From NCBI GenBank assembly GCA_045807625.1, contig JBJMHA010000085.1, positions 38,831 through 102,830 on the forward strand: a DNA stretch of 64,000 nt. The letters are read 5' to 3'. A program made the position numbers and the translations under genes. The notes under the pieces are model-generated. The model was not told where the DNA came from. It ran no database searches and saw only the letters and a list, made by a program, of their open reading frames with translations. Below are positions 2,933-38,976 of the stretch, one piece after another; within the stretch, counting starts at the first letter, position 1, and the number at the start of each line of letters is the position of its first letter. The DNA is from Thermoanaerobaculia bacterium. Lineage in GTDB: Bacteria; Acidobacteriota; Thermoanaerobaculia; Multivoradales; UBA5704.

Positions 2933-2951
2933 GGAGGGGCGAAATTCTTCT

Positions 2952-3053
2952 GTAGGGGCGGCCCTGCGTGGCCGCCCTGTTCCAGTCTCCACGGCGGTGC
3001 GGTCACGCGGGGCGGCCTCCAAAACAGGGCGGCCACACAGGGCCGCCCCTACA
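2952..3053. repeat. REPIN: two inverted GTAG-headed REP palindromes (GTAGGGGCGGCCCTGCGTGGCCGCCCTG ... CAGGGCGGCCACACAGGGCCGCCCCTAC)
   Basis: Inverted pair of ~28-nt palindromic units directly visible in sequence; same family recurs at 16748-16852, 47612-47627, 58777-58804, 61315-61412. Confidence 0.7.
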
Positions 3054-4614: not shown

Positions 4615-4689
4615 TGGGGCGTCGCCAAGTGGTAAGGCACCAGACTTTGGATCTGGCATCCGGAGGTTCGAATCCTCCCGCCCCAACCA
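4615..4689 (+). tRNA. tRNA-Gln (anticodon UUG)
   Basis: Cloverleaf folded by hand: acceptor TGGGGCG/CGCCCCA (U1-A72, typical of bacterial tRNA-Gln), D-arm GCC-AAGTGGTAA-GGC, anticodon stem CCAGA/TCTGG with loop CTTTGGA (anticodon TTG), T-arm GGAGG-TTCGAAT-CCTCC, discriminator A, encoded CCA. Confidence 0.85.
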
Positions 4690-4774: not shown

Positions 4775-5716
4775 ATGGCTGGTGAGCTGAAAATCTTCGG
4801 CGGACGTGCGCACCCGGCGCTGGTGGCCGAGATCTGCGACTACCTCAACCTCGAGGCGGGCAAGGTGTCCGCGTTCAACTTCTCCGACGGCGAGACCTTC
4901 TGCCAGGTCGAGGAGAACGTCCGCGGCTCCGACGTCTTCGTCGTCCAGCCGACCTGCGGCCCGGTGAACGAGAACCTGATGGAGCTGCTGATCATGCTCG
5001 ACAGCTTCAAGCGCTCCTCGGCCTCGCGGGTGACGGCGGTGATCCCCTACTACGGCTACGCCCGGCAGGACAAGAAGGACCGCCCGCGCGTGCCGATCAC
5101 CGCCAAGCTGGTGGCCGACCTGATCTCGCGCGCCGGCGCCGATCGCGTGCTGACCATGGACCTCCACGCCGACCAGATCCAGGGGTTCTTCGACGTGCCG
5201 GTCGACCACCTGTTCGCCGCGCCGGTCCTCCTGGAGGCGGTGCGCGACCTGGAGATCCCCGACCTGGTGGTCGTCTCCCCCGACGCCGGCGGCGTCGAGC
5301 GCGCGCGGGCGATCGCCAAGCGCCTGGGCGCCGGCCTCGCCATCATCGACAAGCGCCGCACGGCGCCGAACGAGGCCGAGGTCATGCACCTGATCGGCGA
5401 CGTCGAGGGCTGCAACGCCCTGGTGGTGGACGACATCATCGACACCGCGGGCACCCTGACCAAGTCGGTCGAGGCCCTCAAGCAAAAGGGCGCCGAGCGG
5501 GTGCTGGCCGCGGGGGTCCACGGCATCCTCTCCGGCCCCGCCATCAAGCGCCTCGCCAGCTCCCCCCTGGAGATGGTCCTGATCACCAACACCACGCCGG
5601 TGGACGACAAGCTCGCCAAGCTCCCGAAGCTGCGCCCCCTCTCGGTGGCGCCCCTGCTCGGCGAGGCGATCCGCCGCATCCACGAGAACAGCTCGGTGAG
5701 CTCGCTGTTCGTCTGA
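4775..5716 (+). CDS. prs: Ribose-phosphate pyrophosphokinase (PRPP synthetase)
   Basis: 313-aa product MAGELKIFGGRAHPALVAEICDYLN...VVVSPDAGGVERARAIAKRLGAGLAIIDKRR...DDIIDTAGTL; classic Prs motifs and length; follows spoVG/tRNA-Gln as in many bacteria. Confidence 0.95.
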   Translation: MAGELKIFGGRAHPALVAEICDYLNLEAGKVSAFNFSDGETFCQVEENVRGSDVFVVQPTCGPVNENLMELLIMLDSFKRSSASRVTAVIPYYGYARQDKKDRPRVPITAKLVADLISRAGADRVLTMDLHADQIQGFFDVPVDHLFAAPVLLEAVRDLEIPDLVVVSPDAGGVERARAIAKRLGAGLAIIDKRRTAPNEAEVMHLIGDVEGCNALVVDDIIDTAGTLTKSVEALKQKGAERVLAAGVHGILSGPAIKRLASSPLEMVLITNTTPVDDKLAKLPKLRPLSVAPLLGEAIRRIHENSSVSSLFV

Positions 5717-5764
5717 TCTCAAGAGAGCTGATCCCAAGAAAGCCATAGAAGCGAGGAAATACCC

Positions 5765-6400
5765 ATGAGCGACACCATGCAGATCGAAGTCACCCCCCGG
5801 GAGGAGACCGGGAAGAACGCCAACCGGCGGGCCCGCGCGGCCGGCAAGATCCCCGCCGTGGTCTACGGCGGCGGCCGGGAGAGCGTGGCCATCCAGATCG
5901 ACCGCAAGACCCTGCTCGACACCATGAAGGGGCACAGCGGCGAGAACCCGATCTTCCTGCTGAAGCTCGGCGACAAGGAGCGGCACGCGATGATCCGCAA
6001 CATGGAGGTCGATCCGGTGAGCCGCCAGGTGATCCACATCGACTTCCAGCGGGTGGTCATGGACCAGAAGATCCGCGTCACCGTGCCGGTGGAGATCGTC
6101 GGCACCGCGGTCGGCGTGAAGACCGAGGGGGGCATGCTCGACTTCGTCACCCGCGACATCCACGTCGAGTGCCTGCCGGGCGACATCCCGAAGCATCTCG
6201 AGGTCGACGTCACCGACGTGCACGTGGGCCAGCACGTCGAGGCCAAGGATGTTCAGCTCCCGCAGGGGGTGACCCTGCTCGACGACCCCGACAAGGTCAT
6301 CATCTCGCTCAGCCACGGCCGTCTGGAGACCGAGGCCGAGGCGGCGGCGGCCGACCGCGCCGAGCCCGAGGTCATCAAGAAGACGAAGGCCGAGGAGTAG
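5765..6400 (+). CDS. rplY: 50S ribosomal protein L25 / general stress protein Ctc
   Basis: MSDTMQIEVTPREETGKNANRRARAAGKIPAVVYGGGRESVAIQIDRKTL... with acidic C-terminal extension; conserved prs-rplY-pth order. Confidence 0.9.
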   Translation: MSDTMQIEVTPREETGKNANRRARAAGKIPAVVYGGGRESVAIQIDRKTLLDTMKGHSGENPIFLLKLGDKERHAMIRNMEVDPVSRQVIHIDFQRVVMDQKIRVTVPVEIVGTAVGVKTEGGMLDFVTRDIHVECLPGDIPKHLEVDVTDVHVGQHVEAKDVQLPQGVTLLDDPDKVIISLSHGRLETEAEAAAADRAEPEVIKKTKAEE

Positions 6401-6985: not shown

Positions 6986-7035
6986 GGCCGCCCGGGAGAA
7001 CGGCCCGCTCCGCCCGGGCATTGATGCCCGGGCGG

Positions 7036-8367
7036 TCAATCTTCCCCAAACACCTCCCCGACCCGCTGGACGAGCTGGTTGGGCAGAATCCACTCCACCG
7101 CCGTCTCCCCAACCCGGACGCCGTGAGCGAGGCTGAGGTTGAGCACGAGGGCGGTGGCGGGCTGATAGGCTTCCAGGAAGCTGCGCAGGGACCGGGAGGG
7201 CAGCGGCCGTTCGCTGCGGCTGGCCTTGACCTCTACAGGCAGGAGGCGATCCCCGCGGGCCAGCACGAAATCCACCTCGGCTCCCGAAGCGCTGCGCCAG
7301 AAGTGGAGCGTGGCTCCGTCCGGAAGGATTTTCCACAGCTCCGTAGCCACCCAACTCTCCAGCAGGGCGCCGGCATCGGTCCTCTCCTCCAAAGGGCGGA
7401 AGTCATGGAGAAGACGGTTGCGCAGGCCGTTGTCCAGCAGGAAGACCTTCGGCCGTGCCGTGAGCTCCACGCGCTTTCCTCCCGCGAAGGGGGCGAGGAT
7501 CACGATCAGGTGGCTCGACTCCAGGATGTCCAGGTAGGAGGCCACGGTGTCGCGGCTGATCCCCAGCACGGAGGCCCATTCCGACAGGTTCACGAGGCTA
7601 CCGGCCTGTCCGGCCAGGAGCCGCAGGAGCTGGCGGAAGGCGTCGGGACGCGCGATCTTGAAGAGGTCGCTCGCGTCCCGCAGGACCATCGCCTCCAGCA
7701 GGTCGGTGAGCAGGGCCTCCGCGTTCCCGGACAGCCAGACGCCGGGGTAGCCGCCGAAGACCAGATGCCGCGCGAAGCGCTCTTCCTCCGCCCGTTCGCG
7801 CAGGATGGCGGGCTTGTCCGCGAGGTCCTGGCAGACCTCGGGGAAGGAGAGGGGGAGCAGGCGAGTGCGGGAGGCCCGGCCGGCGAGCGATTCGCGGGTG
7901 CGGGCTCCCAGGTGGTACGACGAGCTGCCGGTCACCAGGATCGGGACGCCGATCCTGCGGTCGATCAGCCCCTTGAGGAACAGGCCGGCCTCCTCGAGGT
8001 GCTGGATCTCCTCGAAGAAGAGGGTCACCGGGCGATCCACGAGCCCTTCGAGATCCGCGAGGAAGAGGGGGGACGAGCGGCACCACTCGCGGACGAGCGC
8101 CTGCTCGCAGTCGACGAAGAGCGCCGGCTCGCCGCGCTCGGCCAGGTAGGACCAGAGGGAGGTCGACTTCCCGGCCTGTCGCGGGCCGATCACCAGATGA
8201 GCGCGGTCCGCCTCGCTCCAGCGCTCCCGGGCCTTGGCCGCTGCGAAGCGGGGGAGATAGACGGGAGGCAGGCGCAGGCGAAGCCAGCCCGGGAGGCTCG
8301 CCGGGTCCTGGAGCCAGGGGTTGTCCCGCAGCAGGATCGTCTGGAGATTGCGGTCCACGATCCGCAA
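7036..8367 (-). CDS. AAA+ ATPase with C-terminal DUF4143 domain (ATP-binding protein)
   Basis: 443-aa ORF; Walker A GPRQAGKST, Walker B LLFVDCEQ-like/FFEEIQ region, C-terminal DUF4143-like segment (FLLDNGLRNRLL...). Common stand-alone ATPase family. Confidence 0.8.
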   Translation of the reverse strand: MRIVDRNLQTILLRDNPWLQDPASLPGWLRLRLPPVYLPRFAAAKARERWSEADRAHLVIGPRQAGKSTSLWSYLAERGEPALFVDCEQALVREWCRSSPLFLADLEGLVDRPVTLFFEEIQHLEEAGLFLKGLIDRRIGVPILVTGSSSYHLGARTRESLAGRASRTRLLPLSFPEVCQDLADKPAILRERAEEERFARHLVFGGYPGVWLSGNAEALLTDLLEAMVLRDASDLFKIARPDAFRQLLRLLAGQAGSLVNLSEWASVLGISRDTVASYLDILESSHLIVILAPFAGGKRVELTARPKVFLLDNGLRNRLLHDFRPLEERTDAGALLESWVATELWKILPDGATLHFWRSASGAEVDFVLARGDRLLPVEVKASRSERPLPSRSLRSFLEAYQPATALVLNLSLAHGVRVGETAVEWILPNQLVQRVGEVFGED

Positions 8368-9690: not shown

Positions 9691-10137
9691 GTGAGAGTCA
9701 TTCTGCTCAGCGATCAGCGCCACCTCGGCCGCCGTGGCGAGGTGGTGGACGTCAAGCCGGGCTTCGGCCGCAACTACCTGGTCCCCCAGGGGCTTGCGCT
9801 CGAGGCCACGGACTCCAACATCAAGTACTTCGAGCACCAGCGGGCCAAGATCGACGCCCGGCACGGCAAGGAGCGCGAGGCCGCCCAGGAGATCGCCAAC
9901 CGGATGGCCAACGTCCGGGTGGAGATCCCCAAGCGGGTCGGCGAGACCGACACCCTCTACGGCTCGGTCACCGCGGGCGATGTCGCCGAGGCCCTGGAGA
10001 AGAAGGGCTTCACCATCGACCGCCGGCGCCTGGACCTCGAAGGGGGCATCAAGACCCTCGGCGATCATCCGGTGCGCATCGAGCTCCATCCCGAGGTGGT
10101 CGCCGAGGTGACCGTCTCGGTGGTGCGGGAAGAGTAG
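9691..10137 (+). CDS. rplI: 50S ribosomal protein L9
   Basis: MRVILLSDQRHLGRRGEVVDVKPGFGRNYLVPQGLALEATDSNIKYFEHQRAKIDAR... (GTG start) canonical L9. Confidence 0.95.
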   Translation: MRVILLSDQRHLGRRGEVVDVKPGFGRNYLVPQGLALEATDSNIKYFEHQRAKIDARHGKEREAAQEIANRMANVRVEIPKRVGETDTLYGSVTAGDVAEALEKKGFTIDRRRLDLEGGIKTLGDHPVRIELHPEVVAEVTVSVVREE

Positions 10138-10175
10138 ACCCATCATTTTTCTTATAAAAACGGGAGCGCCGGCGC

Positions 10176-11375
10176 ATGGCGGCGAGAGAAGAGAGCTCAC
10201 CTCCACGCCGGCCTTTGGGGCTCGACGACTTCCTCGTCGAGCCCACCCGCAACCTTGAAGACTGGCGCTGGCTGTGGTCGGGGGACCACGCGTTCCCCAT
10301 CCGCAGCCACCGCGGTGTCCTGGGCCGCCTTCTGGTCGGCTTCAAGCGCCTCCTGCGCCCGCTGGTCAAGACCCCCCAGAACGACCTCTGGGAGCGGCAG
10401 CGCACCTTCAACCTGATCCTCCTCGAACACCTGGAGCGCCTGGAAGCGGCCCGCGCCGACCACCAGCGGCGCATCGAGTATCAAGAGGCCCTCGACTCCG
10501 AGGGGATCCACGAGATCATGCGTCACAACGACGCCCTGTTCGCCCGCGCCGACCAGAAGCTCGACCGCTACCGGCGCGAGGCCCGCGACCTCCTGGGCAG
10601 CCTGGGAGCGGCGCTCGCCACCGTCCGCTCAGGCGCCCCCGCTCCGGAGGCGGTCGAGGCGGTCGCCCGGGCCCACGAAGAGCACGGCTACCTGGAGCTG
10701 GAGCGGCGCTACCGCGGCACCGAGGAGGAGATCCGCGAGCGGATCGCCGCCTATCTGCCCTATTTCCAGGACGTGCCCGGCCCGGTGCTCGACCTCGGCT
10801 GCGGCCGGGGGGAGGCGCTGGCCCTGCTGCGCGACCACGGCATCGCCGGCCGGGGGGTGGACGCCAGCGAGCGGATGGTCCAGCTCTGCCGCGAGCGCGG
10901 TCTGGAGGCCGAGGCGGGGGACCTTTTCGCGGTGCTGGCCGGCGTGGGGGAGGGGAGCCTGGGTGGGGTGGTCTCCTTCCACGTCATCGAGCACCTCCCG
11001 GCGGGAGCGCTCGACCGGCTGGTGCGGCTGGCGTACCGGGCGCTGCGCCCGGGGGGCGTGCTGATCCTGGAGACCCCGAACCCGCTCTCCGTGGTGGTGG
11101 CCGCCCGCAACTTCTGGCTCGACCCCACGCACGTCCGGCCGGTGCACCCCGACAGCCTGAAGCTGATGTACGAGCTCGCCGGCTTCGATCCGGTCGAGCG
11201 GCTGGACCTCCGCCCCTTCCCCGCGAGCCAGCGCCTCCCCGAGATCGACCTCGCCACCCTCCCGGCGGAGCAGCGCCCCCTGGCCGATCAGGTCAACCGC
11301 CTGCGCGACCGGCTGGACGAGGTGCTGTTCGGGTATCAGGATTTCGGGATGGTGGGGCGGAAGCCGCGCGGTTGA
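10176..11375 (+). CDS. Class I SAM-dependent methyltransferase with N-terminal helical extension
   Basis: Motif I VLDLGCGRGE, post-I acidic GVDASERM, motif II/III region VVSFHVIEHLP...GGVLILETPNP typical of Methyltransf_11/23-type enzymes. Confidence 0.75.
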   Translation: MAAREESSPPRRPLGLDDFLVEPTRNLEDWRWLWSGDHAFPIRSHRGVLGRLLVGFKRLLRPLVKTPQNDLWERQRTFNLILLEHLERLEAARADHQRRIEYQEALDSEGIHEIMRHNDALFARADQKLDRYRREARDLLGSLGAALATVRSGAPAPEAVEAVARAHEEHGYLELERRYRGTEEEIRERIAAYLPYFQDVPGPVLDLGCGRGEALALLRDHGIAGRGVDASERMVQLCRERGLEAEAGDLFAVLAGVGEGSLGGVVSFHVIEHLPAGALDRLVRLAYRALRPGGVLILETPNPLSVVVAARNFWLDPTHVRPVHPDSLKLMYELAGFDPVERLDLRPFPASQRLPEIDLATLPAEQRPLADQVNRLRDRLDEVLFGYQDFGMVGRKPRG

Positions 11376-11399
11376 TCCCCCGCCCGAACCCTCACCCCC

Positions 11400-11598
11400 G
11401 GCCCCTCTCCCAACCCCTCCCACCCACCCTCACTGGGAGAGGGAAAGCGGGAAGGGTTTTTCTGATCCGACCGATCGGACGGATCCGACGGATCGGTCGG
11501 ATCTAATTGGCCGGTAAGGGATTTTTGTTTTTCTCCCTCTTCTCCCGGTGTGGGAGGGCGGGAGGGGACGGGAGAAGAGGGCCGGGGTGATGAGGGCT
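11400..11598. repeat. Mosaic of intergenic palindromic elements: CCTCTCCC/GGGAGAGG hairpin, GATC-rich palindrome (GATCCGACCGATCGGACGGATCCGACGGATCGGTCGGATC, ~11462-11510), and CCCTCTTCTCCCGG...CGGGAGAAGAGGG hairpin
   Basis: Direct reading; ~11462-11596 recurs reverse-complemented at ~44995-45140; GATC palindrome also at 50150-50200; hairpin family also at 28699-28825. Lies between convergent methyltransferase and PBP genes. Confidence 0.6.
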
Positions 11599-16378: not shown

Positions 16379-16599
16379 CGGAGTGTTCCTCCTGCCAGAG
16401 AGTTGCGGTGGAATGACCTTTTCAGGGCCCTCAGAGGCTCGCGGCGCGCCCGAGAGGCGCTTCGCCGATCCCCGGCCCCTTTCAAGAGATCGCAACTCGC
16501 GGGAAAAAGACGACAGGAGGAAGCTCCCGGCCGGAAAGACCGCGAGCTCATCGGCTCGCAGCCGGGCGGCGGCATCTCAAAGGCGCGAAGAAATGTCCG

Positions 16600-16925
16600 G
16601 CCTACCGTGCCGCCGCCGAGAAGCTCCGGGCGGGGATCCGCGACGTGGTCTTCCCCCGAGGGGGACGCCGAAAGGCTCTTGGCGAGGGGCACCCGAGCGG
16701 GAGAGACTCTCATGCCGCAAGCGGCACCCGAGAGAGGTGAAAATTCCGTAGGGGCGGCCCTATGTGGCCGCCCTGGGAGGGGGGCCTGCTCCGGCCCTGC
16801 GACCCCACCCACCCAGGGCGGCCACATAGGGCCGCCCCTACATGACCTTCCCTATTTTCAGAACAGAGCGGAGAATAGGTGCCTATTGAGGATTGGCCAC
16901 GTAGATTAGGATGGCACCTGTTCGG
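16600..16925. repeat. Degenerate duplicate of the RAYT 3' end and its downstream region (left direct repeat), interrupted by a REPIN
   Basis: 16600-16712 matches 19384-19447 plus 19638-19680 (gagaagctccgggcNgggatccgcgacgtggtcttcccccg...gccgaaaggctcttggcgaggggcacccgagcggNagag); 16866-16925 matches 19681-19737 (agcggagaataggtgcctattgaggattggcNacgtagattaggatggcacctgttc). About 190 bp present at the right copy are missing here. Confidence 0.55.
16748..16852. repeat. REPIN (perfect inverted pair of GTAGGGGCGGCCCTATGTGGCCGCCCTG REP units around a 45-nt spacer)
   Basis: gtaggggcggccctatgtggccgccctg...cagggcggccacatagggccgcccctac read directly; inserted within the left direct repeat. Confidence 0.75.
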
Positions 16926-16946
16926 GACCAATTCTTTCGCGCTCGG

Positions 16947-17561
16947 CTAGGCTTGACCCACTGTGCCAAGCGCAATATCTCCAGCCGGAACATAGGTGCT
17001 CATCACGACGCCAGATGCTGAGACCTTCGAAGCCACGAGCCGCAGTGCACATGGCCTTGCGCCTTTTTCAAACAATCGCTTCCCACGGCCAAGGACGACG
17101 GGGTACGTCCATACGTGGTATTCGTCAATGAGAGATGCGGCTTGTAGCGTCTGAATTAGATTGCCGCTGCCAATGATTTGAAGATCGTGTCCGGGCTGCC
17201 CCTTGAGCGCGGTGATGGCAGAAACGACGTCACCGCCAAGTACCGATGAGTTGTTCCATTTCAATGACTTCAACGTGCGGGACGCCACATGTTTTTTTGC
17301 CGCGTTGAACGTCCGCGCAATCGCATTATCCTCTGCTTGGTGAGGCCAATAAGCCGCGAACATTTCGTAGGTTTTTCGGCCGAGTACAAGCTCTCGATCT
17401 TTACCATCGAAACCTGCCGCAGAAAGATCCGTTGTTTCGTCCCAGAAAGCCGAGGTCCAACCACCTAACGTAAAATTTCCGGTTGGATCTTCGTCCGGTC
17501 CGCCTGGCGCCTGCATGACACCGTCCAGTGATGTAAATGTGGACGCGATGAGTTTTCTCAT
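16947..17561 (-). CDS. Dihydrofolate reductase family protein (RibD C-terminal-domain type)
   Basis: MRKLIASTFTSLDGVMQAPGGPDEDPTGNFTLGGW...LVLGRKTYE...GSGNLIQTL pattern of the RibD_C/YwjB family; GC content visibly lower (~52%) than surroundings. Confidence 0.75.
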   Translation of the reverse strand: MRKLIASTFTSLDGVMQAPGGPDEDPTGNFTLGGWTSAFWDETTDLSAAGFDGKDRELVLGRKTYEMFAAYWPHQAEDNAIARTFNAAKKHVASRTLKSLKWNNSSVLGGDVVSAITALKGQPGHDLQIIGSGNLIQTLQAASLIDEYHVWTYPVVLGRGKRLFEKGARPCALRLVASKVSASGVVMSTYVPAGDIALGTVGQA

Positions 17562-17700
17562 ATAACTCTCCTATGATTGGATTACATCGTGCTCGCTAAC
17601 GCTTGAGCTGAGCGGCACACCGCAGCGACCGAGCGTCAGCGAGGGCGCGAGGATGTGTCCGCTCGAGCGAGTGTTAGGCGGCGACCTGTCCAGCCAGTTG

Positions 17701-18171
17701 TTACTCCCAATCCTTTTTCAGCATCAGCTCATCTATCCTGTAGGCGTGAAGCATCTCATGCATCAGCATATGCCTGAACATTATATACACCGAGTAGTGG
17801 CTGAACGCCTCATGCTCGGCCGTCCGCTGCCAATCGTCTGCGGATAGCTCCTTCAACCGCTTAACGACCAGCGTCCGCTCCCGCACGTACCGGCCCAGCG
17901 CTTCGTCCAGATCAACGCTCAGTAGTGAGCCGGCCTCCTCGTCCGGTGATGGTTCCATAGACTTTATTTGGGGGAGCGGGTCAGAGAGCATCAACTCCAA
18001 GCGTGCGAGGAATGTCGCCTGCCCGGTAGATATGTGACAGGCATGCTCGTGAGCGGACCACTTGTTCGGCGCAGGGCGGCGCTTGAGGTTCTGGGGTGGC
18101 ACCTCGCGGACGAGGCCAATGATAATGCCAGGCGCGGCCTCTAAAGTAGCTATCAACGTTTGCGTATTCAT
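17701..18171 (-). CDS. DinB/YfiT-like (DinB_2) family metal-dependent protein
   Basis: 156 aa with HEHACHISTGQATFLARL ... MLMHEMLHAYRIDELM four-helix-bundle His motifs typical of DinB_2; low GC like neighbour. Confidence 0.75.
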   Translation of the reverse strand: MNTQTLIATLEAAPGIIIGLVREVPPQNLKRRPAPNKWSAHEHACHISTGQATFLARLELMLSDPLPQIKSMEPSPDEEAGSLLSVDLDEALGRYVRERTLVVKRLKELSADDWQRTAEHEAFSHYSVYIMFRHMLMHEMLHAYRIDELMLKKDWE

Positions 18172-18561
18172 AATCTCCTCCTTAGTCGCGCGCCGCCAGC
18201 AAGCCGCCGCCGAGTAGGCCAGGGGGCCTTACGGCCCCCCAGCCCCTCTAAGAACCGTACGTGCGAGTTTCCCCGCATACGGCTCAAGCACCTCAAAGGC
18301 CGATCCCTTGATCGAACCCGGCTGCCCCTTACGGGACAACCTTCGCGATACTAACATGGTAGGCACCAGGCTCTGGACTCGCCAGAGGAGGGGCTGCACC
18401 GGCGGGTGGTCGAACCACCTCCACCTCTCTTTGCTCTTCCCGTTTAAGGGTGTTCTCGGGGGGCGAGGTGCCATCCGATTCGCGGCGGTTTACCCCCCTC
18501 GCAAACCCAAGTGGTTCTAGGGTGAATCAGATTCGGGACCGATTTTACGTCTTCATAGGGT

Positions 18562-19482
18562 ATGAGCCGACGACTCCGCTTCATCCCCGAAGGAGGAGCC
18601 CTGGTGGAGGTGACCTGCCGGTCGCTCCACAGCCGTCTCCTGTTCCGTCCCAGTCCCGTGCTGAACCAGATCATCATCGGGACTCTCGCCCGGGCCAAGC
18701 AGCGCCACCAGGTCCGGGTCTGTTTCTTCGTCGGCGTCTCCAATCATATGCATCTCTTGCTATGGGTTGAGGACGCCCAAGTGCTATCCAAGTTTATGGG
18801 CTACTTCCTATCGAAGCTGGCGCGGGAGGTCGGGCGCCTGACCGGCTGGAAGGAGAAGATCTTCGGCCGGCGCTACCAGGCCATCGTGGTCAGCCCCGAG
18901 GAGGCCGCCCAGGTCGAGCGACTCCGCTACGGGCTCGCGCACGGCGCGAAAGAGGACCTTGTGGACCGGCCCCGGGATTGGCCCGGAGTCCACGCCGTGC
19001 GGGCGTTGCTCGAAGGCGAGGTCCTGGAAGGGCTCTGGTTCGACCGCACCCAGGAGTACCTGGCGCGCCGCCGTGGCGAGAAGTTTGACCGCCTTCAGTA
19101 CGCGACGCGGGAGGTGCTGGAGCTCGATCCGCTGCCCTGCTGGGAGCACCTGACGGCAGAGCAGAGGCGCGTCCGGATCGCGGCCCTGGTGGAGGACATC
19201 GAGTCCGAGGTCGCCGTCCGGAGGAAGAAGACGGGCGCCAAGCCTCTGGGTGTGGCGGCCGTCCTGGCCAAGAATCCGCTCCAGCGACCGAAGAAGACCA
19301 AAAAGTCGCCCGCGCCGGCTTTCCATGCGGCGAGCAGGGCCGTGCGCCGCGGGCTCTGGGACGCCTACTCCCTGTTCGTCGCGGCCTACCGTACCGCGGC
19401 TGAGAAGCTCCGGGCCGGGATCCGCGACGTGGTCTTCCCCCGGGGGAGCTTCCCGCCACCGTTGCCGTTCGTGGGTGGATAG
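18562..19482 (+). CDS. REP-associated tyrosine transposase (RAYT; IS200/IS605-like Y1 HuH transposase family)
   Basis: 306 aa; HuH motif in VSNHMHLLLWVED, downstream catalytic-Tyr region GRRYQAIVV; window contains multiple GTAG-headed REP/REPIN palindromes, the known substrates of RAYTs. Confidence 0.7.
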   Translation: MSRRLRFIPEGGALVEVTCRSLHSRLLFRPSPVLNQIIIGTLARAKQRHQVRVCFFVGVSNHMHLLLWVEDAQVLSKFMGYFLSKLAREVGRLTGWKEKIFGRRYQAIVVSPEEAAQVERLRYGLAHGAKEDLVDRPRDWPGVHAVRALLEGEVLEGLWFDRTQEYLARRRGEKFDRLQYATREVLELDPLPCWEHLTAEQRRVRIAALVEDIESEVAVRRKKTGAKPLGVAAVLAKNPLQRPKKTKKSPAPAFHAASRAVRRGLWDAYSLFVAAYRTAAEKLRAGIRDVVFPRGSFPPPLPFVGG

Positions 19483-19637
19483 GCCGGCGCAGCAGTGTTC
19501 TTGACCTGATGGAAACTGACCACGGCGCTCCGGGAGGAGTGGACAGCGGAGGTGTGTCCAGGTGAACTGTTCGGGCGAGGATACCGGAAGCGGATGTCGG
19601 CAATCTCGGTCGAATTTGGGGTAGGGAGATACCCGGA

Positions 19638-19737
19638 GGACGCCGAAAGGCTCTTGGCGAGGGGCACCCGAGCGGAAGAGAGCGGAGAATAGGTGCCTAT
19701 TGAGGATTGGCTACGTAGATTAGGATGGCACCTGTTC
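19638..19737. repeat. Right direct repeat (intact copy of the sequence duplicated at 16669-16925)
   Basis: gccgaaaggctcttggcgaggggcacccgagcggaagagagcggagaataggtgcctattgaggattggctacgtagattaggatggcacctgttc; the upstream part of the repeat (19384-19447) lies inside the RAYT 3' coding end. Confidence 0.55.
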
Positions 19738-32272: not shown

Positions 32273-32403
32273 GCAAAGGTCTAGAGGTCGAGGTCACACC
32301 GCGAGCCGCGGCGCAGATCGAGCGGGCCGCGGCATGGTGGGCTGAGAACCGGCGCAGCGAACATGCTGTAGACTCTGGCAGGCTTGTTCATCTAGCGTTG
32401 TAG
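32269..32403 (+). pseudogene. Truncated ParE/RelE-family toxin gene (N-terminal ~35 codons retained)
   Basis: TTG-start ORF LSKGLEVEVTPRAAAQIERAAAWWAENRRSEHA... matches ParE N-terminus pattern (V.WTP.A..D...I..YIA..NP.AA) then diverges into low-GC sequence and stops at 32401-32403; start overlaps antitoxin stop (TTGA). Confidence 0.45.
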
Positions 32404-32544
32404 ACTGGAGAGAGGCTAGAGTAGTGGCACCAAATCCCCCTGAAGAAATGCTCTAGTCCCTTGCAGGCTATAATATGTTTGATCATGATAAGCCAAGCTC
32501 CGATGTCGCTAAGCCGGGACATTGCTGATCGAGATCGGTGAGCG

Positions 32545-35500
32545 ATGCTGGGGCTTACGGCAGCACATCGGGGTTATGAATATCAGGATCTTCTCGTCGC
32601 TTGCCGCCTTGTCGACGTACTTTTAGGCACCCTCGTCCAGGTCCATGTAGATGAGAAGTTGATTCCTGGTGACCGCTTTGACGATCTTACAACCGTAGAT
32701 ATCAGTGGTCACCGTGAGCGGATTCAATTCAAACACACAGATAACGACGACAAACCTCTAACACTCGCGACGTTTACGAGCGACGATAGAGGTCTTCGGC
32801 TTGATCGCCTCATCGCCGCGATACTCACCGACCGTTTAGGCCCAGGAAGTCATTCTAAGCATCATAGCTTTCGCGTGATTCTTCGGGATAAGCCGCCCTT
32901 AGATCCGCGCCTCACGGCCGTCCTAGCTCCCACCGCAGTTGATCCAGGGCCATTCATACCGGCCATGCCGACAATACGACTGGCCTTTGATGCTGAGGCC
33001 TTGTGGAAACACGTCGAGCAAAAGTCCAACATAGATTCACCCCCTGGTGAGGGTTATTTCGGATTCCTTTCTAATGAAGAGATGCCTATGTTGCGAGCTG
33101 ACCTCGAATGGGCGTGCCAGCACCTCATAATCGAGGTAGCGGCTCCAGCAGCAAGTGGAGACCTGACAACCCCTGAGATAGCCGAACGCCTGCTCCTAAT
33201 GCGAGTCCGTACCGACGTTGGCGCGGAGGCATACCCTAATGTGAACCGCTCTGCGATTGATGTCGCTGCGGCGATGATTGGAGCTGCCCGCGCAGCCCGT
33301 CAGAGGCGACTTATTATTTCCTCTGACGAGTTACTTCGCTGGGCGCAGTTGCGCCACGATTTCGGGGCCGTCTCACGCGCTCATCCGGTTGATCGTAGCG
33401 TCGAGGTTTTAAGAACAATAACAGTCCGAAAGCTTGCAGAGTCTACGGCTGAGCTAGCAAATATCGGAGGGCGACTTCTTGTGGTCGGTCCGCCTGGTCA
33501 AGGTAAGTCGTGGGTTTGTCAGCAACTTCTAGACGAGCTGTCATCCCGCGGATGGCTTACTTCGGAGCACTACTGCTATTTGGGCGATGCCGATGGTGAG
33601 CGATTGGCGCGAGTTCTCGCAGAAACAGTCTTTGGAAGTCTCCTCGGTCGGCTCGCTGATGCCGATCCCAGGTTAGTCGTCGACCATCGGCCACGTTTCG
33701 CAGCTGACGAGGAGGCGCTCATCGGTTGTCTCACTCGGTCCCTCCAATATGATCCGCAACGCCCAGTGGCACTTCTAGTGGACGGAATCGATCACATAAC
33801 TCGAATTCGTTCTAGAGGTGGCAACTTTGATCCTTCCTTGAACCTTGCTGAGGCACTTAGCGCCCTGGCGTTGCCGAAGGGTAGCGTGCTAATCGTCTTG
33901 AGTCAACCTGGGGTACATCTAAAGCCCCTCGAAGAGGCGGGAGCTACAACACTTACCATCCCCGGGTTAGACGAGATTGAGATTCGTTCGCTCGCTGCAC
34001 GTCTCCGTGTCGTGCCTCCGATAGGCATGGCCTCTTACAATGGCGACAGACCATTGCTCGAGACTGACGAAGCTGTATCTGAGTTTCTTTCGGCGCTAGC
34101 AGATCGATCAGCAGGCAACGCTCTGTATGCCACGTATCTTTGCAGGGAGGCCCTCCGTCAGGACTCCACACCTGCGGACCCGGCTACCATAGTGAGAAGC
34201 TTCCCTCCATTCGATGGAACACTCGAGAGCTACTATCAATACTTGCATTCAACGCTTGGTGCCGAAAGTGGGTGGGTTGCCGATGTCATTGCCTTAATAG
34301 ACTTTGCTGTCAACCGTTCCGAGTTACTTGAGATCAGGCCAGATGCATCGCATCATATCGACAAGGCTCTCGAAGTTCTTGCTCCAGTTCTCGTAGAGCG
34401 AGCTGCTCAAGGCGGCGTTCGTATATACCATGAATCCTTTGCTAGATTCCTGCGTCGCCCATTTCAGAACGATCCTATCGCGCTCGGTGCTCTCCTCAAT
34501 CTGATCGCTGCTTGGTTGGAGAGAAAAGGCTTCTTCTCAGACCCTCGAGCTTTCAGCTCTCTCCTTCCGACTCTTACCGAAGCTGGTCGCGATGCTGAAG
34601 TGGTCACTCTCATAGAGCGAGGCTTCGTGGTTCGTGCAGTAGCCGCCGGTTTCTCGGCATCTTCTATTAACAACAACCTCGCAACTGCAATTGGATCCGC
34701 AGCGCGGATCAAGAATTGGCCGGCTGTTGCCCGTTATGTAGAGCTGTCGCGAGCTGCGGATGCTTATCAGGACGAACGCTTTGATTCCAGTTTAGTGCAA
34801 TTCGCCGATATACCGATGGCGTTACTCGGACCAGGAGTTGTTTCGGATCGCTTACTGCATAACGATCGGCTTGTAATGCCCGCGAGGTCTGGGCTTCAGA
34901 TGTGTGCCGCTGTCGACGAACTCGGTGCGGTTGCACCTTGGAGTCAGTACATGAGAGGGTATCTGCGCGAAGCTAAAGCTGACAATACCTCTTATGGTGC
35001 AGAATCCGACCGCAAAGTGGCTCTGGCATGGTTGCGCGGTCGGCTTCGCCTCTCAGTGTTGTTGGAGAGCTCAGAACATCAAGCTAATCTTGGGAGCCAC
35101 GATGATGATAACGATGGCGAGCCGAATGACAGAGAATGGAACCCGGCTAGCCCGCTGGATTGGAACCGTTTAGTGCATTGGGTGAATAGGCGAAGGCTTC
35201 CTGCATTCGATGTGGTCAAGGCTATCTACGATACCTATGGCCTGCCGAGCGTGATTAAGTTTATTCGAATGCTTGATCGTCCGGGAGATATGTATTTGGC
35301 GCTCGCTGAGTTAACCATGGTTAATGGAGCTGTTGATAGCACTATCAATGCGCGACAGTGGGCAATCAATGCCGCATCTTGCGGAGTGGTGCCAGGTTCA
35401 GCGTATCGGATGCTGGCGCTTGGAGTAGATCTATCAAATCTTGCAATCTTATCTGTTAGTGATGCCCGTGATCGCTTGCTATCTCTGACGCAGGATCTCC

Positions 35501-38500
35501 AACATCGATCCGCTCAGTGGGAAGGTTCGAGTATTGGTGAGTGGCTAGATGCGTGTGCCGTTGCTGCCCGTCGAGATTTACTTGGTCTTAACTCCGCCGA
35601 GGCGCTTATTTGTGGAGAAGGATGGTACCGATGCTGGCTTCGATTCTGTGTGGCACTCGTGCGTGCGGAGTCCGCCCACGTCGCTGATCAATCAGTCCTC
35701 GCTCTGGATGCGCTCCGTTGCCTTACTGAAGACCTAAATCCTTTTTCGGGCGAGCCCCGATCGTGCGATCTTTATTCGATCCATGGACGAATAGAGGATA
35801 CAATCCGACGGGCCATGGGCCTCCTTAACGATTCTGGATGGTCGGAAGCTCTTTTGCTGCTGAGAGGAGTTAGTCGATCAATAACAACGACCATCCAAGG
35901 AGAGTTGGGCGGTCCACTTCCGCCTAGTTTGCTTCTCCGGATCGCTCTCGATGGGGCAACGCCAACGCGCCGAGAGGTTGCCACCGATTTTGTCGCAGAA
36001 GAGATTGAGAACGGATCTGCACGTCGATACTATTCAGATCTGGCAGAGTATCGTCTCCTTGGATCCCGGCTCGCGCTTGCTTCGGGTGAAAGAGTAGAAG
36101 CAACTCGACTGTGGCATGAGGCTTGTGAGATGCTTACGGCTTATGGGTGGCACAAAGATATTACAATTTACGAGCTACTTGATCCCTTGCCGGCTCTTAT
36201 TGCTGCGGACCCGGCTCGTAGCCGTAACTGCGTAGCACGCGTGCAACCGGTATGCGAGAGAGTTCCCATCCACACTGACGGAAAGGGAACTCGCCAAGTT
36301 TGGGAGCGCTGGTGGGAACTGCTAGCCAAAGCGGATCCAGTAGCCCTTGCACACCTTGCAGCAAGTCGTCTGCTATGTGAATGCAATGATCCCAACTGGT
36401 TGCTGCATGGTGCACTGGTAGACCTTTGGCGTGAGTGGCAGGAGAGAACAGATCCGATCATTGCGGGCGCTCTCCGGCTTACTCTTGATATCGCATTAGA
36501 TCCTAGAGATCCTCTCGCGCTCGCCCGTCTGACGGATCGAATTAACAGAGGCGACAGTAGCTGTAATGAGCTAATGGCTCTGCTCCTGGCGAGAGCAGAT
36601 GAGCGCCCAGTGGAATATAGCTACTCAAATAGCAGTGAGTTGCTCGCGAAAGACGATGCGCGCATGGCGGAGTTCAACCTCGTGGCGCAACAAGCGAATT
36701 TACCACAAGCTATGCCCGTTCGCGAATTCCGTGATGGAGCATCGCCGTCGCGGTCCCTGCGCGGCGCTGTACGCCGTTCCTTATCTAAAGCTGCTTTTGT
36801 CTTCACGGATATTACTGCTTGTTTTCCTGCCGGCGCTGTTGGGCTCGCTTATGCGACACGGGCATGGCGTAGCCGCCCCTATGATGCGCCAGAGGCAAAC
36901 TGGAGTGTGGATCGCTTCGCAAACATCATTGGCTACCGAATGATAGAGCTCATAAATACCGGAAGAGAGGGGGACATGGTGGCCTCACTGTTATCACTTG
37001 CCGAGGCAACGAGGTTCTATGACCAATTCGGCATACTACGAGCAGTAGCAGAGGGACTGGAGCGCCATCGTCAGCATCGCCTTGCGGCTATGGCTTATAC
37101 GCTTGCCTGGACGAGGGCGCGCAACCACGGTGGTTGGCTGAGGTTCGGAGGAGAAACTGAGATCGATTCGTTGCACCGTGCCACTCAGTTGGATCATGGA
37201 CTCGTACTCAGTGTTGTCGCGGATGAGGTTCAGAGAACTGTTGCCGGAGGTTACGGCACCTACGGAATCTCCCAAGCTCTCATCTACGGTTTTGGGGTCG
37301 GAGCACTTTCCTCCTGCGGCACCTCATCCTTAGATACAGCGTTTGGTGTATGGGACGAAATTTTTTCTGTCATTGCAAGTAGGGCACCGCGGGTACACCC
37401 GTCGGATGACCCCGATGATACGTACACTCCACCCGATCCGGATGATGGCACCGCCGCTCCAGGTGACCTGGACGCTGCGTTGGCCCTGAGCACTCTTGCA
37501 GGTCTTGCCCATCCCGCCCGTGAGAAGAAGCGGCGAACATTGTTAGCGGTGCAACTTCTATTGTCCGAACGCCCGACCCAATCAGCACTCGCCGTAGACC
37601 TTGCCCTTGCCAATCTTTCAGACCCGGCAACACTTACTTGGTTACTTCGGGTGGTAGAGCAGTCGGGTGAGCCGAGGGAGATCGTGGTTGCTAAGTGTCA
37701 GGAAACTCTTACACGACTAGCTACTGGGCCGTACTTGACGATCCGCGCACTTGCACGGCGCCTTCTGCGGGGAGCCGAACCGCCCTTGCCACCGCCGACA
37801 CCTGCGGATAGAGCGCTCGTTGAAGACTGCTCAGTAGACCTCTGGACCCCGCATGGAAATAACTATGAGCCTCTACAGCCGCCTGGACGAAATGAAGAGT
37901 TCTTGGATCTAGTGGCTGGGTTAAGGCTGGAAGAAGCCGAGTCTCTATTGCCGGGGCTTCGAAAAGGTGTGCTCACCCGCCTATCCACTGCAATCCACGA
38001 TGAAACTCGTCAGAAACGGCTGCGTGCACAACTTGATGCCTTCGCCGATCGCCTCGGTCAACAATGGCCAAATGCTTATTTGATACCAGAGCAGACTGTC
38101 GAGGAAATGCTACAACTTGTAGCAACTGGCGGACGTGCGGCTCGGATCGTAAAGGGCAACCCAAGCACTGATCCGGTGCGATGGGAAGATACGCTCGCCT
38201 CTAAGCTTCTCGACGACCCAATGCTACCGATCCGAGTTGAAGGTTGCCGACAGCCACGACCACTAATCCCACCACCACCGGCGCTTCGGGATCCAATCTG
38301 GAGTGATGTTGCGAGTGAACGTGAGCAGGTACTAGCCGCAACTTTGACAGTGGAGTCCTTTGACACTGCTGCAATTATGGCCGGAGGTCGGTTCCATGGT
38401 TGGCGAGTTATTGCTACTGTAGAGACACGAATGGTTAAGCATCCCGATCCAAATATACGCAAGGAACTCGTCGCCAAGCGCTATAGAGCCCTCGAAGTCA

Positions 38501-38976
38501 GAAAGCCTGGTGATCGACGGGGACTAACTTTACCACCCTTTGCAGGGGGTGATATACGTTGGTGGAGCACCTCAGTCGAAGATTTTTCTAATTCGAAGCC
38601 ACACACTCTTAGTGGAAGCCACCCTGTTATTGGTCTAGATAATGATGTCGAGGCGGCAGGCGACGGCCTCCAGAGTCTCGGAATCCCGATACCACTCCTC
38701 TGTCCTACCATTTGGTTGATGGCAACTTTGGGCCTTCGTCCGGGAGAGCCGTTTATACTCGACGCTGAGGATGGCCCTGGCCTTTCGCTCGTTATATGGC
38801 GTACGGATTACGACACCAGTGAGTACTATCTAACGCGCCCTCGTATTTGGGGAGCGGCGATCTTTATGCGGCAAGCTATGCTCGATCGACTAGTTGATGC
38901 GGTCGGTAGTGCTCTCAGCATTCGGGACTTCATCGTTGGTGACTTGGATCTAAGCTCTCCTGCGAGAGAGACTTAG
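32545..38976 (+). CDS. Giant (2143 aa) STAND-type P-loop NTPase with N-terminal nuclease-like domain and long helical C-terminal region; Avs/AVAST-like candidate anti-phage protein
   Basis: Single uninterrupted ORF in a ~53% GC island. N-term GYEYQDLLVACRLVDVL...HVDEKL...DLTTVDISGHRERIQFKH (restriction-endonuclease-fold-like, Cap4/DUF4297-like); Walker A VVGPPGQGKSW (~aa 314-324); Walker B ALLVDGIDH (~aa 402-410); then ~1600 aa of Leu/Ala/Arg-rich helical sequence. Confidence 0.85.
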   Translation: MLGLTAAHRGYEYQDLLVACRLVDVLLGTLVQVHVDEKLIPGDRFDDLTTVDISGHRERIQFKHTDNDDKPLTLATFTSDDRGLRLDRLIAAILTDRLGPGSHSKHHSFRVILRDKPPLDPRLTAVLAPTAVDPGPFIPAMPTIRLAFDAEALWKHVEQKSNIDSPPGEGYFGFLSNEEMPMLRADLEWACQHLIIEVAAPAASGDLTTPEIAERLLLMRVRTDVGAEAYPNVNRSAIDVAAAMIGAARAARQRRLIISSDELLRWAQLRHDFGAVSRAHPVDRSVEVLRTITVRKLAESTAELANIGGRLLVVGPPGQGKSWVCQQLLDELSSRGWLTSEHYCYLGDADGERLARVLAETVFGSLLGRLADADPRLVVDHRPRFAADEEALIGCLTRSLQYDPQRPVALLVDGIDHITRIRSRGGNFDPSLNLAEALSALALPKGSVLIVLSQPGVHLKPLEEAGATTLTIPGLDEIEIRSLAARLRVVPPIGMASYNGDRPLLETDEAVSEFLSALADRSAGNALYATYLCREALRQDSTPADPATIVRSFPPFDGTLESYYQYLHSTLGAESGWVADVIALIDFAVNRSELLEIRPDASHHIDKALEVLAPVLVERAAQGGVRIYHESFARFLRRPFQNDPIALGALLNLIAAWLERKGFFSDPRAFSSLLPTLTEAGRDAEVVTLIERGFVVRAVAAGFSASSINNNLATAIGSAARIKNWPAVARYVELSRAADAYQDERFDSSLVQFADIPMALLGPGVVSDRLLHNDRLVMPARSGLQMCAAVDELGAVAPWSQYMRGYLREAKADNTSYGAESDRKVALAWLRGRLRLSVLLESSEHQANLGSHDDDNDGEPNDREWNPASPLDWNRLVHWVNRRRLPAFDVVKAIYDTYGLPSVIKFIRMLDRPGDMYLALAELTMVNGAVDSTINARQWAINAASCGVVPGSAYRMLALGVDLSNLAILSVSDARDRLLSLTQDLQHRSAQWEGSSIGEWLDACAVAARRDLLGLNSAEALICGEGWYRCWLRFCVALVRAESAHVADQSVLALDALRCLTEDLNPFSGEPRSCDLYSIHGRIEDTIRRAMGLLNDSGWSEALLLLRGVSRSITTTIQGELGGPLPPSLLLRIALDGATPTRREVATDFVAEEIENGSARRYYSDLAEYRLLGSRLALASGERVEATRLWHEACEMLTAYGWHKDITIYELLDPLPALIAADPARSRNCVARVQPVCERVPIHTDGKGTRQVWERWWELLAKADPVALAHLAASRLLCECNDPNWLLHGALVDLWREWQERTDPIIAGALRLTLDIALDPRDPLALARLTDRINRGDSSCNELMALLLARADERPVEYSYSNSSELLAKDDARMAEFNLVAQQANLPQAMPVREFRDGASPSRSLRGAVRRSLSKAAFVFTDITACFPAGAVGLAYATRAWRSRPYDAPEANWSVDRFANIIGYRMIELINTGREGDMVASLLSLAEATRFYDQFGILRAVAEGLERHRQHRLAAMAYTLAWTRARNHGGWLRFGGETEIDSLHRATQLDHGLVLSVVADEVQRTVAGGYGTYGISQALIYGFGVGALSSCGTSSLDTAFGVWDEIFSVIASRAPRVHPSDDPDDTYTPPDPDDGTAAPGDLDAALALSTLAGLAHPAREKKRRTLLAVQLLLSERPTQSALAVDLALANLSDPATLTWLLRVVEQSGEPREIVVAKCQETLTRLATGPYLTIRALARRLLRGAEPPLPPPTPADRALVEDCSVDLWTPHGNNYEPLQPPGRNEEFLDLVAGLRLEEAESLLPGLRKGVLTRLSTAIHDETRQKRLRAQLDAFADRLGQQWPNAYLIPEQTVEEMLQLVATGGRAARIVKGNPSTDPVRWEDTLASKLLDDPMLPIRVEGCRQPRPLIPPPPALRDPIWSDVASEREQVLAATLTVESFDTAAIMAGGRFHGWRVIATVETRMVKHPDPNIRKELVAKRYRALEVRKPGDRRGLTLPPFAGGDIRWWSTSVEDFSNSKPHTLSGSHPVIGLDNDVEAAGDGLQSLGIPIPLLCPTIWLMATLGLRPGEPFILDAEDGPGLSLVIWRTDYDTSEYYLTRPRIWGAAIFMRQAMLDRLVDAVGSALSIRDFIVGDLDLSSPARET

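Follow-up and report, generated by a model that had tools for sequence, protein, structure and literature searches.

How foreign genes come to lie between two pieces of the same transposase-like sequence is the question raised by a locus in an uncultured soil acidobacterium. The window, a 64,000-nucleotide stretch of Thermoanaerobaculia bacterium DNA (UBA5704; assembly GCA_045807625.1, contig JBJMHA010000085.1, positions 38,831 to 102,830), contains between 16598 and 19737 a gene resembling a REP-associated tyrosine transposase (RAYT; REP, repetitive extragenic palindromic sequence), a direct repeat of its 3′ end upstream, and, between the two, a dihydrofolate-reductase-like (RibD_C) gene and a DinB_2 gene of low GC content. 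We read the locus as a decayed cluster of two RAYT-like units with foreign DNA lodged between the copies, and we put the probability of this reading at roughly 0.55. Each component belongs to a known kind; the locus stands out through their combination and through the clustering of such units across the family, and it is a scar assembled from familiar types of mobile DNA, not a new system.

The original prediction held that the 3′ end of the RAYT had been duplicated at the left, and this was borne out by a repeat search, which recovered three direct segments (A, B and C), and by a pairwise MAFFT alignment, which agreed that all three are collinear between the left and right copies. The parts of the two copies are:

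16598–16662, plus strand: left segment A, remnant codons 275–295 of a second RAYT-like gene, 92% identical (60/65) to 19382–19446 and matched by tblastn
16660–16706, plus strand: left segment B, 3′ untranslated part of the old unit, 96% identical (45/47) to 19635–19681
16707–16860, no strand assigned: left-specific insert with a GTAG-type REPIN (paired REP) core, recognized by its inverted repeat and fold
16861–16923, plus strand: left segment C, right end of the old unit, 97% identical (61/63) to 19675–19737, its terminus kept in six other loci (L003, L004, L005, L007, L008 and L009 in our numbering)
18466–19737, plus strand: intact RAYT-like (TIRYT-type) unit, from alignment with copies in other genomes, inverted motifs, Pfam/NCBIfam and AlphaFold2, and made up of a left inverted motif (18466–18484), a leader (from 18489), the gene (18562–19482) and a right inverted motif (19718–19733)
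19382–19446, plus strand: right segment A′, codons 275–295 of the intact gene (repeat search)
19447–19634, plus strand: right-only 188 bp holding the last 12 codons, the stop codon and 3′ untranslated region (UTR), conserved in other genomes
19635–19737, plus strand: right segments B′ and C′, right end of the intact unit (repeat search and alignment)

Probes taken from C (32 nt) and B (37 nt) hit two sites only in the window, against a shuffle expectation of 0 (100 shuffles), and the repeat ends at the terminus of the unit, so that it derives from the RAYT-like unit and not from a widespread REP. Neither the left nor the right copies of B and C had a significant match in other genomes. Segment A codes for residues 275–295 of the 306-aa open reading frame (ORF), and the left copy is identical at 20/21 amino acids (tblastn), with five substitutions over the 21 codons (four synonymous and one non-synonymous).

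The predicted structure of the left copy, lacking ~190 bp and carrying a REPIN, also held. The 188 bp at 19447–19634 of the right copy have no left counterpart; in the left copy A is joined directly to B at the microhomology CCCGGrGGA, the short repeat appearing on the right as CCCCCGGGGGAGC at 19437 and CCCGGAGGACGCC at 19632 and on the left as CCCCCGAGGGGGACGCC. Judged by this junction, the ~190 bp were lost from the left copy by a microhomology deletion. Between B and C the left copy carries an extra 154 bp (16707–16860) with no counterpart in the right copy or in the units of six other genomes. This insert consists of a REPIN core (16748–16841) flanked by 41 and 19 nt of additional sequence; the core folds as DNA at −52.3 kcal/mol (z = −9.8) and contains an inverted repeat with 37-nt arms (16748–16784 and 16805–16841) that are 95% complementary, each arm being a GTAG-tagged hairpin REP (GTAGGGGCGGCCCTATGTGGCCGCCC). 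The same GTAG REP occurs elsewhere in the window, as doublets at 2950–3052 and 61315–61405 in addition to 16748–16841, and as a singlet at 58777–58806. This REP has no sequence relationship to the unit's terminal motifs and presumably depends on another RAYT encoded outside the window.

The limits of the unit were defined by comparison with related loci, for which GTDB species representatives were scanned (76 loci); the relatives were all metagenome-assembled genomes (MAGs). DNA homology with the nearest loci spans ~18489 to 19733–19739 of the window. When the right ends were aligned, all copies and the left remnant finished in ...GGrTGGCACCTGTTC with unrelated sequence beyond, the last letters of the intact unit up to 19737 being ...CACCTGTTC. 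On the left, conservation begins at CCCCCCTCGCAAACCC (18489); AGGTGCCAyCCGAwTCGCG, which inverts the right-end motif, stands a variable distance ahead of it. Within the window, 18466–18481 is 88% complementary to 19718–19733 and to 16904–16919 (inverted motif, 16/24 nt), and left segment C contains this terminal inverted motif as GATTAGGATGGCACCTGTTC. Over 1.2 Mb of sequence from related loci we counted 71 occurrences of the motif's 10-mer core where 13.6 are expected, a ~5-fold excess, with 40/71 copies within 400 bp of a gene copy and mostly on the ‘+’ strand upstream and the ‘−’ strand downstream. Short tandem repeats of the terminal motif stand just beyond the right ends in L003, L007 and L140. 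Family units are thus discrete elements of ~1.27 kb, in which two inverted motifs, one at each end, enclose the 306-aa gene and its 3′ region. In the window the core was found at the unit ends and at a single site inside the DinB_2 gene only. This 14-nt site (18094–18107) lies within the coding sequence and is 93% complementary to the left inverted motif (GCGAGGTGCCACCC); it may be due to chance.

The left repeat ends at 16923, exactly at the right terminus conserved in copies from six other genomes, which indicates that it is the tail of a second, co-oriented unit. On this alignment we identify it as a 3′ remnant comprising the last ~360 bp of such a unit. To the left of 16598 no RAYT similarity above chance was found, the junction at 16597/16598 being sharp; an inverted 26-nt match at 16519–16544 was rejected as a RAYT trace, its score equalling that of shuffled controls.

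The intact gene had been called a RAYT. Its 306-aa ORF (18562–19482, plus strand) reached 22.2 bits against Pfam Y1_Tnp (cut-off 23) and 33.5 bits against NCBIfam REP_Tyr_transpos (cut-off 80). More than 1300 relatives were found, almost all of 306 aa and annotated as RayT or transposase, and the named hosts are Thermoanaerobaculia/Acidobacteriota MAGs only, with at least four copies on each of the single chromosomes OY970373.1 and OY969112.1. A 23-member protein alignment contained zero indels. The histidines H62 and H64 (SNHxHLLL) and the tyrosine Y123 are invariant or almost so in 23–29 homologues, the tyrosine motif in the family being Y-[GVI]-L-x-[HNQ]-G, i.e., Y-x3-(H/N/Q)-G, and the family profile aligned with ISDra2 TnpA with the HUH motif and catalytic tyrosine (Y132) in register (E = 8e-4). 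The AlphaFold2 model (mean pLDDT 79.5) gave as its top Foldseek match in the PDB the E. coli TnpA_REP structure 4ER8 (E = 1.6e-5, target TM 0.63, 147 columns), followed by the TnpA proteins of ISDra2, IS608 and IS200; the similarity to 4ER8 covers the N-terminal domain. The C-terminal half is strongly conserved: residues ~150–306 are as conserved as the catalytic domain (WFDRTQEY, PLPCW, SPAPAFHA, FVAAYRxAAEKLRAG, FPxGSFPP) and are modelled as long helices with a small sheet, with no informative PDB match. On this evidence the protein is an HUH/Y1 enzyme near the RAYTs with an added C-terminal region of ~160 aa, and the gene probably still codes for a functional nuclease/transferase acting on single-stranded DNA. 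Given the scores under the RAYT cut-offs, the multiple copies and the terminal inverted motifs, RAYT-like or TIRYT-type is a better label than RAYT; the inserted REPIN belongs to a different REP family, the GTAG one.

Local clustering of co-oriented copies is a property of the family. Extra copies or fragments were detected by tblastn within 10 kb of the reference copy in 30 of 77 distinct loci, and 100% of them lie on the same strand as the reference copy. Insertion in transposition of the IS200/IS605 type, which proceeds through single strands, is tied to the lagging-strand template; by analogy, such transposition would predict a uniform orientation of the copies. L001 is a true full-length tandem, and complete tandem or near-tandem pairs were found in L001, L012, L022, L026 and L053. 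Elsewhere a full copy is followed by two 3′ fragments (L042, 579–2539; L043, 10001–12494; L046, 10001–12886), and in L008 a 3′ end precedes a full copy, the two being separated by 2.7 kb of cargo that encodes a HigA antitoxin and a PIN toxin. 3′ fragments outnumber 5′ fragments ~4:1 across the family, and their start points are scattered from codon 31 to codon 275. Compared with the whole set, 17 of 30 fragment pieces were most similar to the adjacent copy, at 90–98% identity, which identifies such fragments, like the two window copies of B and C, as local duplicates. The ratio of non-synonymous to synonymous divergence (dN/dS) between fragment and neighbor was 0.08–0.47 (pooled 0.29; 12 pairs, all from other genomes) with zero stop codons, indicating that most of the divergence of the fragments accrued while they were parts of selected genes. 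Gaps between copies at other loci have native GC content with almost no canonical attC, and contain toxin–antitoxin modules, IS21, IS110 and DDE transposases, an integrase and lanthipeptide genes. In a further locus, L064, the RAYT-like gene (7020–7133 and 10001–10822) is interrupted by a 2.9-kb insertion (codons 1–38 and 33–306) that contains two ORFs (536 and 248 aa) and resembles an insertion sequence (IS) with a target duplication.

The DNA between the copies has a different origin. Its low GC content had been put at ~52%; the dip is real and less deep, 16924–18208 having 56% GC (RibD_C gene 53.7%, DinB_2 gene 56.7%) against 66.6% for the window. The predicted DHFR-family and DinB_2 assignments were upheld by Pfam (RibD_C, 65 bits; DinB_2, 62 bits). 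An RNA-like remnant had been proposed at 18390–18545, where we found no Rfam match at E ≤ 1 and no tRNA or tmRNA; an RNA element does occur at 18209–18304. The features between the two copies are:

16924–17600, minus strand: RibD_C (dihydrofolate-reductase-like) cassette, truncated, gene 16947–17561 (Pfam, homologous loci)
17595–17679, minus strand: attC of the DinB_2 cassette (imperfect palindrome, homologous attC in arrays)
17601–18208, minus strand: DinB_2 cassette, gene 17701–18171 (Pfam, DNA identity to L084/L085)
18209–18304, minus strand: group II intron 3′ stub, domains V and VI (Rfam, identity to L018/L019/L059)
18305–18465, no strand assigned: spacer, 161 bp, 62% GC (no significant match)

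The DinB_2 protein has thousands of relatives at >83% identity, one of them in an Ignavibacteria MAG. In the loci inspected (L079, L080, L081/82, L083, L084) its gene stands in runs of small co-oriented genes, with DUF1801, glyoxalase, MOSC, GNAT, ParE and Mrr neighbors, that are trailed by canonical, strongly folding attC sites (RYYYAAC...GTTRRRY). The window DNA is 97% identical to L084/L085 over exactly 18208→17598 and 92.5% identical to L079. Upstream of this cassette L083 and L084 have ...GCG/TTAGGCGGCTTGCTGG (the slash marks the crossover), the R′ core of the preceding attC, and the 5′ boundary of the window cassette aligns with G/TTAGGCGGCTTGCTGG. The cassette limits coincide with G/TT, the second boundary falling at 17601/17600. 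Its attC (R″ GCCTAAC at 17679–17673, R′ GTTAGCG at 17601–17595) is an imperfect palindrome of 85 nt, departs from the consensus at two positions of R′ and is homologous to the attC that follows DinB_2 in L079, L084 and L085. For RibD_C, 451 relatives were confirmed and 80 kept; these ~80 soil-metagenome loci match 17601→16925 at 83–97% and continue past 16925 with ~60 nt of 3′ UTR and an attC (GCGCTAAC...GTTAGGC). The window cassette is cut 22 nt past the stop codon, where it abuts the remnant terminus, and is without an attC of its own. Both genes are >85–97% identical to genes in co-oriented, canonical-attC arrays whose hosts have 36–62% GC.

The element at 18209–18304 is the end of a group II intron. 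Domains V–VI matched Rfam Intron_gpII (RF00029) at 18209–18287 on the minus strand over the full model length (64.3 bits, gathering threshold 40; E = 1.4e-11), and the stub shares 94% identity with the ends of the introns in L018 and L019 and 87% with that of L059. Complete versions are present in L019 and L079. In L079 an intron without an ORF (~5256–6153) lies between the attC of a DUF1801 cassette and DinB_2, the same position as the stub; in both cases it interrupts the R′ core of the attC (GTTA^GGC), and intron and DinB_2 point the same way. The window retains the last ~95 nt of the intron, perhaps slightly more; no trace of domains I–IV or of a reverse transcriptase was found upstream of domain V in the window. 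Intron stub and DinB_2 cassette also occur together in several arrays (gene calls of 194–220 aa: P0121–P0123, P0125, P0127). The remaining 161 bp (18305–18465) may be further diverged intron sequence or the original inter-unit spacer; there is a weak similarity to the L079 intron around 18340–18355, and within 18305–18490 only the terminal motif (18458–18488) recurs elsewhere.

Taken together, intron stub, DinB_2 cassette with attC and RibD_C cassette make up a 1.38-kb excerpt from a soil integron cassette array, cut at both ends at arbitrary points. Because both ends lie off the attC crossover, the fragment in its present form was not placed by an integron integrase, and integrase-mediated insertion of the cargo as it now stands was rejected. 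An attC scan of the window found the single attC at the locus and no array; with neither an adjacent integrase nor a second attC, the locus is neither a complete integron nor a cluster of attC sites lacking integron-integrases (CALIN), although an intI gene may exist elsewhere in the genome. The neighbors of the locus are a gene for a FIMAH-domain lipoprotein and uvrB, and within 72 bp of the right terminus of the intact unit begins the uvrB upstream region conserved in L006. Integration of a tRNA/tmRNA-type island that duplicated the 3′ end of its target gene was also rejected, since such an event would have left the partial copy on the other side of the intact gene, the cargo has no integrase, and no tRNA or tmRNA was found.

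Two other loci join the same cargo genes to parts of such units. In L007, a different MAG, the DinB_2 cassette also lies directly upstream of a RAYT-like unit; compared with the window, DinB_2 is 95.6% identical and the adjacent units 83%, and the spacers between DinB_2 and unit are unrelated. The DinB_2 5′ boundary in L007 (405–650; G/TAGGCGGCTTGC) lies ≤1 nt from the canonical integrase crossover and is joined to a perfect 9-bp hairpin (CACCTGGGC-TCGC-GCCCAGGTG) ~70 nt from the left inverted motif of the unit; this junction may be an integrase-mediated insertion at a secondary site beside a REP-like hairpin. In L140 (3780–3860) a RibD_C cassette (85% identical) is truncated immediately past its stop codon, where a tandem pair of terminal motifs (GAAACAGGTGCCGCTCC GAACAGGTACCACCC) follows directly, at a junction position that differs from that in the window. 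Another cassette, with an attC-like site, comes before it, and no RAYT-like gene was found within 4 kb.

The history that we propose begins, by comparison with other loci, with ~1.27-kb units that duplicate locally in direct orientation. One unit has stayed intact at 18466–19737, and 1.5 kb upstream the last ~360 bp of its sister are left, ending at 16923. The pattern of substitutions suggests that the sister was once a complete, selected gene; it would later have lost its 5′ ~85% (junction 16597/16598) and ~190 bp, and gained the REPIN-bearing 154-bp insert. Between the remnant terminus and the intact unit lies the 1.38-kb array fragment. In the last and weakest step, the fragment may have been joined at the right terminus of the upstream unit, the site that a Y1 enzyme would cleave, through aberrant strand transfer or break repair, with the cassette genes facing the 3′ end of the remnant; the mechanism of joining at 16923/16924 is conjecture. 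Nothing suggests that the bracketed block is now an active element. The original prediction had offered, beside a RAYT-associated segmental duplication, a former tandem in which one copy was replaced by foreign low-GC DNA. Its two co-oriented copies stand (the family clusters, the L001 tandem and the shared terminus all agree); the replacement does not, as the foreign DNA lies between the copies and the 5′ ~85% was lost separately at 16597/16598.

Several points weigh against this history. A single random capture does not predict the contrast with L007 (95.6% for DinB_2 against 83% for the units), which hints at targeting or exchange, and random decay does not account for the excess of 3′ fragments, so that partial 3′ duplicates were possibly made directly. 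The spacer at 18305–18465 had no significant match in the window, in the fetched loci or in Rfam. Close relatives that preserve an intermediate or empty state did not turn up, leaving the order of events unobserved. The coding overlap in the window is just 63 nt with five substitutions, and the view that the sister was once functional rests mostly on other loci; the joining at 16923/16924, and any cleavage there by the 306-aa enzyme, are conjecture.

The first of these doubts about decay leads to the strongest rival, in which only the 3′ ~360 bp were ever copied to the left and a second full gene never existed. The dominance of 3′ fragments in the family and the arrays of one full copy followed by two 3′ fragments speak for such direct partial duplication, as do the tandem terminal motifs outside the right ends in L003, L007 and L140, which point to a dynamic right end, and the C-terminal TnpA_REP fragments of picocyanobacteria (bioRxiv 10.1101/2020.03.09.984088). 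Mostly synonymous changes (pooled dN/dS 0.29; 4:1 in the window) would, however, be unexpected if one partner had never been selected, even if selection on the intact partner alone would also lower dN/dS somewhat, and the scattered fragment starts fit decay, as does the existence of complete pairs. We therefore regard direct partial duplication as unlikely, while ranking it above the other rivals. A markedly less probable account has the units transposing into a resident small cassette array, a CALIN, at the 3′ UTR of RibD_C and in the intron, with the outer array deleted later. HUH/Y1 elements act on single strands rich in hairpins, a description that attC arrays fit; in L140, too, RibD_C follows a cassette with an attC-like site, is cut just past its stop codon and abuts two terminal motifs. 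Nothing outside the two units of the window is array-like, however, the uvrB upstream region within 72 bp of the right terminus leaves the 5′ part of the intron missing from its predicted place, and inter-copy gaps elsewhere have native GC and essentially no canonical attC. The broader idea of the units as attC-targeting elements living in arrays was dropped on the same evidence from the gaps.

It is more doubtful still that cargo and RAYT-like unit moved together as a translocatable composite, much as in IS26 arrays or ISCR capture, and settled beside or within a resident copy through homologous recombination or a Y1 enzyme acting on the outer ends, with the direct repeat arising in the same event. 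Direct copies with accessory genes between them (toxin–antitoxin, IS, integrase, lanthipeptide) are common ground with such a composite, and L007 repeats the adjacency of DinB_2 and unit in a different downstream context; against this, the identities of 95.6% and 83% indicate that cargo and unit have different histories, the DinB_2–unit spacers of window and L007 are unrelated, and a second copy of the composite was not found. Least credible of all is an artefact of metagenome assembly, in which a short shared repeat led to the fusion of a low-GC cassette contig with the RAYT locus. The relatives are all MAGs, repeats and GC shifts are classic sites of chimeras, and the exact 306-aa protein was absent from the searched gene-position index of public assemblies; yet the repeat copies differ by 3–8% as well as by the 190-bp deletion and the 154-bp insert and would not collapse, the junctions fall at the unit terminus and within unique sequence, and the independent assembly L007 also shows DinB_2 beside a unit. 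With insertion into an array and movement as a composite both disfavored, the favored route within the decayed two-copy cluster is that a foreign fragment was captured at the upstream unit's right terminus.

A bolder version, which we think improbable as a whole, gives the enzyme an active part. Here the RAYT-like enzymes of Thermoanaerobaculia with their C-terminal extension would themselves build such loci, by co-oriented duplication and, through cleavage and strand transfer, by joining of the right terminus to foreign single-stranded DNA, here the bottom strand of a cassette array folding at its attC, so that the units would serve as landing pads that trap cassettes and other accessory genes outside integrons. 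Its footprints would be the surplus of 3′ fragments and the orientation of cargo genes toward the unit's 3′ end, together with the L140 junction and the L007 adjacency, which recurs despite identities of 83% and 96%. This role is kept open because the window junction lies exactly at the terminus, because of the L140 junction, and because of the TnpA_REP pattern in picocyanobacteria. The locus matters more if the pattern over ~30 loci reflects enzyme activity and not decay; were this true, a reproducible link of RAYT-like enzymes with C-terminal extensions to gene capture and local duplication would extend beyond the picocyanobacteria to a second phylum, and their role would become testable. 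As it stands, the locus shows a pile-up at one chromosomal spot of an uncultured soil acidobacterial lineage (a RAYT/TIRYT unit and its decayed duplicate, a REPIN, cassettes and an intron stub), and that integron cassettes can become fixed outside any integron.

Other features were noted elsewhere in the window. A single 2143-aa ORF (32545–38976, plus strand) fills a 6.5-kb island (~32400–39000) of 51–57% GC within a genome of 67% GC; its only Pfam match is an AAA_16/AAA_22 ATPase region at residues 309–450, which suggests a STAND/NLR-like giant ATPase, and it was probably acquired horizontally. A palindromic repeat family (…CCCTCATCACCCCGGCCCTCTTCTCCC…GGGAGAAGAGGG…) lies between genes at 11385–11445 and 11524–11597 and shares 95% identity with a pair of copies that immediately precede uvrB in L006 (15885–16087), a related genome of 7.7 Mb. 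Ordinary housekeeping RNAs comprise a class A bacterial RNase P RNA (47643–48052; 270 bits) and a tRNA-Gln(TTG) (4615–4689).

Among known systems the closest in description is the TIRtron, in which terminal inverted repeats (TIRs) flank a RAYT-like gene called a TIRYT; Acidobacteria hold a sharply defined group of these (Di Nocera et al., 2013, PMC3733652). The units share with it a TnpA_REP-related HUH/Y1 enzyme longer than classical RAYTs, flanking inverted motifs in place of GTAG hairpin REPs, a small dispersed motif family, several diverged gene copies per genome and a host in the Acidobacteriota. The motif here is AGGTGCCAyCC..., however, and not the GGGGWSAS consensus of many published TIRs, and local co-oriented clusters with 3′ fragments are not described in that study. 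Classical RAYTs or TnpA_REP proteins (4ER8; Nunvar, 2010; Bertels and Rainey, 2011; Bertels et al., 2017) resemble the enzyme in the N-terminal fold, of which they are the best match, in the conserved HUH and tyrosine, and in a gene flanked by an inverted short repeat, and JGI labels the relatives RayT. The enzyme differs from them in scoring under the curated cut-offs (33 vs. 80 and 22 vs. 23 bits), in its conserved C-terminal extension, and in a tyrosine motif of Y-x3-(H/N/Q)-G instead of the Y-x3-N-P of class 2 TnpA_Y1 (PMC6006769). Many copies and fragments per genome are found here, and the genome's abundant GTAG REPIN is unlike the unit's own ends. RAYTs sensu stricto are typically vertically inherited, with one or few diverged copies per genome.

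Two integron-related comparisons concern the cargo. It has the genes, G/TT boundaries, intervening attC and R′-core group II intron of integron cassettes and CALINs, and differs in that one attC is left, the ends are off the crossover points and no integrase is adjacent. Introns of the IIC-attC type insert in the bottom strand of attC, opposite to the cassette genes (Leon et al., 2010, PMC3001079), whereas the intron here, in the window and in L079, has the same orientation as the cassette genes. IS26 arrays and ISCR capture likewise bracket accessory DNA with direct (partial) copies of one element; they use DDE or Y2 HUH enzymes in contrast to the Y1 HUH enzyme here, where there is no sign that the block moves and cargo and unit have different histories. 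Finally, in the TnpA_REP–procA clusters of marine picocyanobacteria, full copies and many mostly C-terminal fragments are scattered among genes, although the authors found no firm causal link (bioRxiv 10.1101/2020.03.09.984088). The enzyme there is also C-terminally extended and the accessory genes face the 3′ end of the transposase, as RibD_C faces the left remnant; the phylum is another one, however, and the cargo there is an endogenous, expanding family, whereas here it consists of horizontally acquired cassettes and, at other loci of this family, of assorted mobile and accessory genes.

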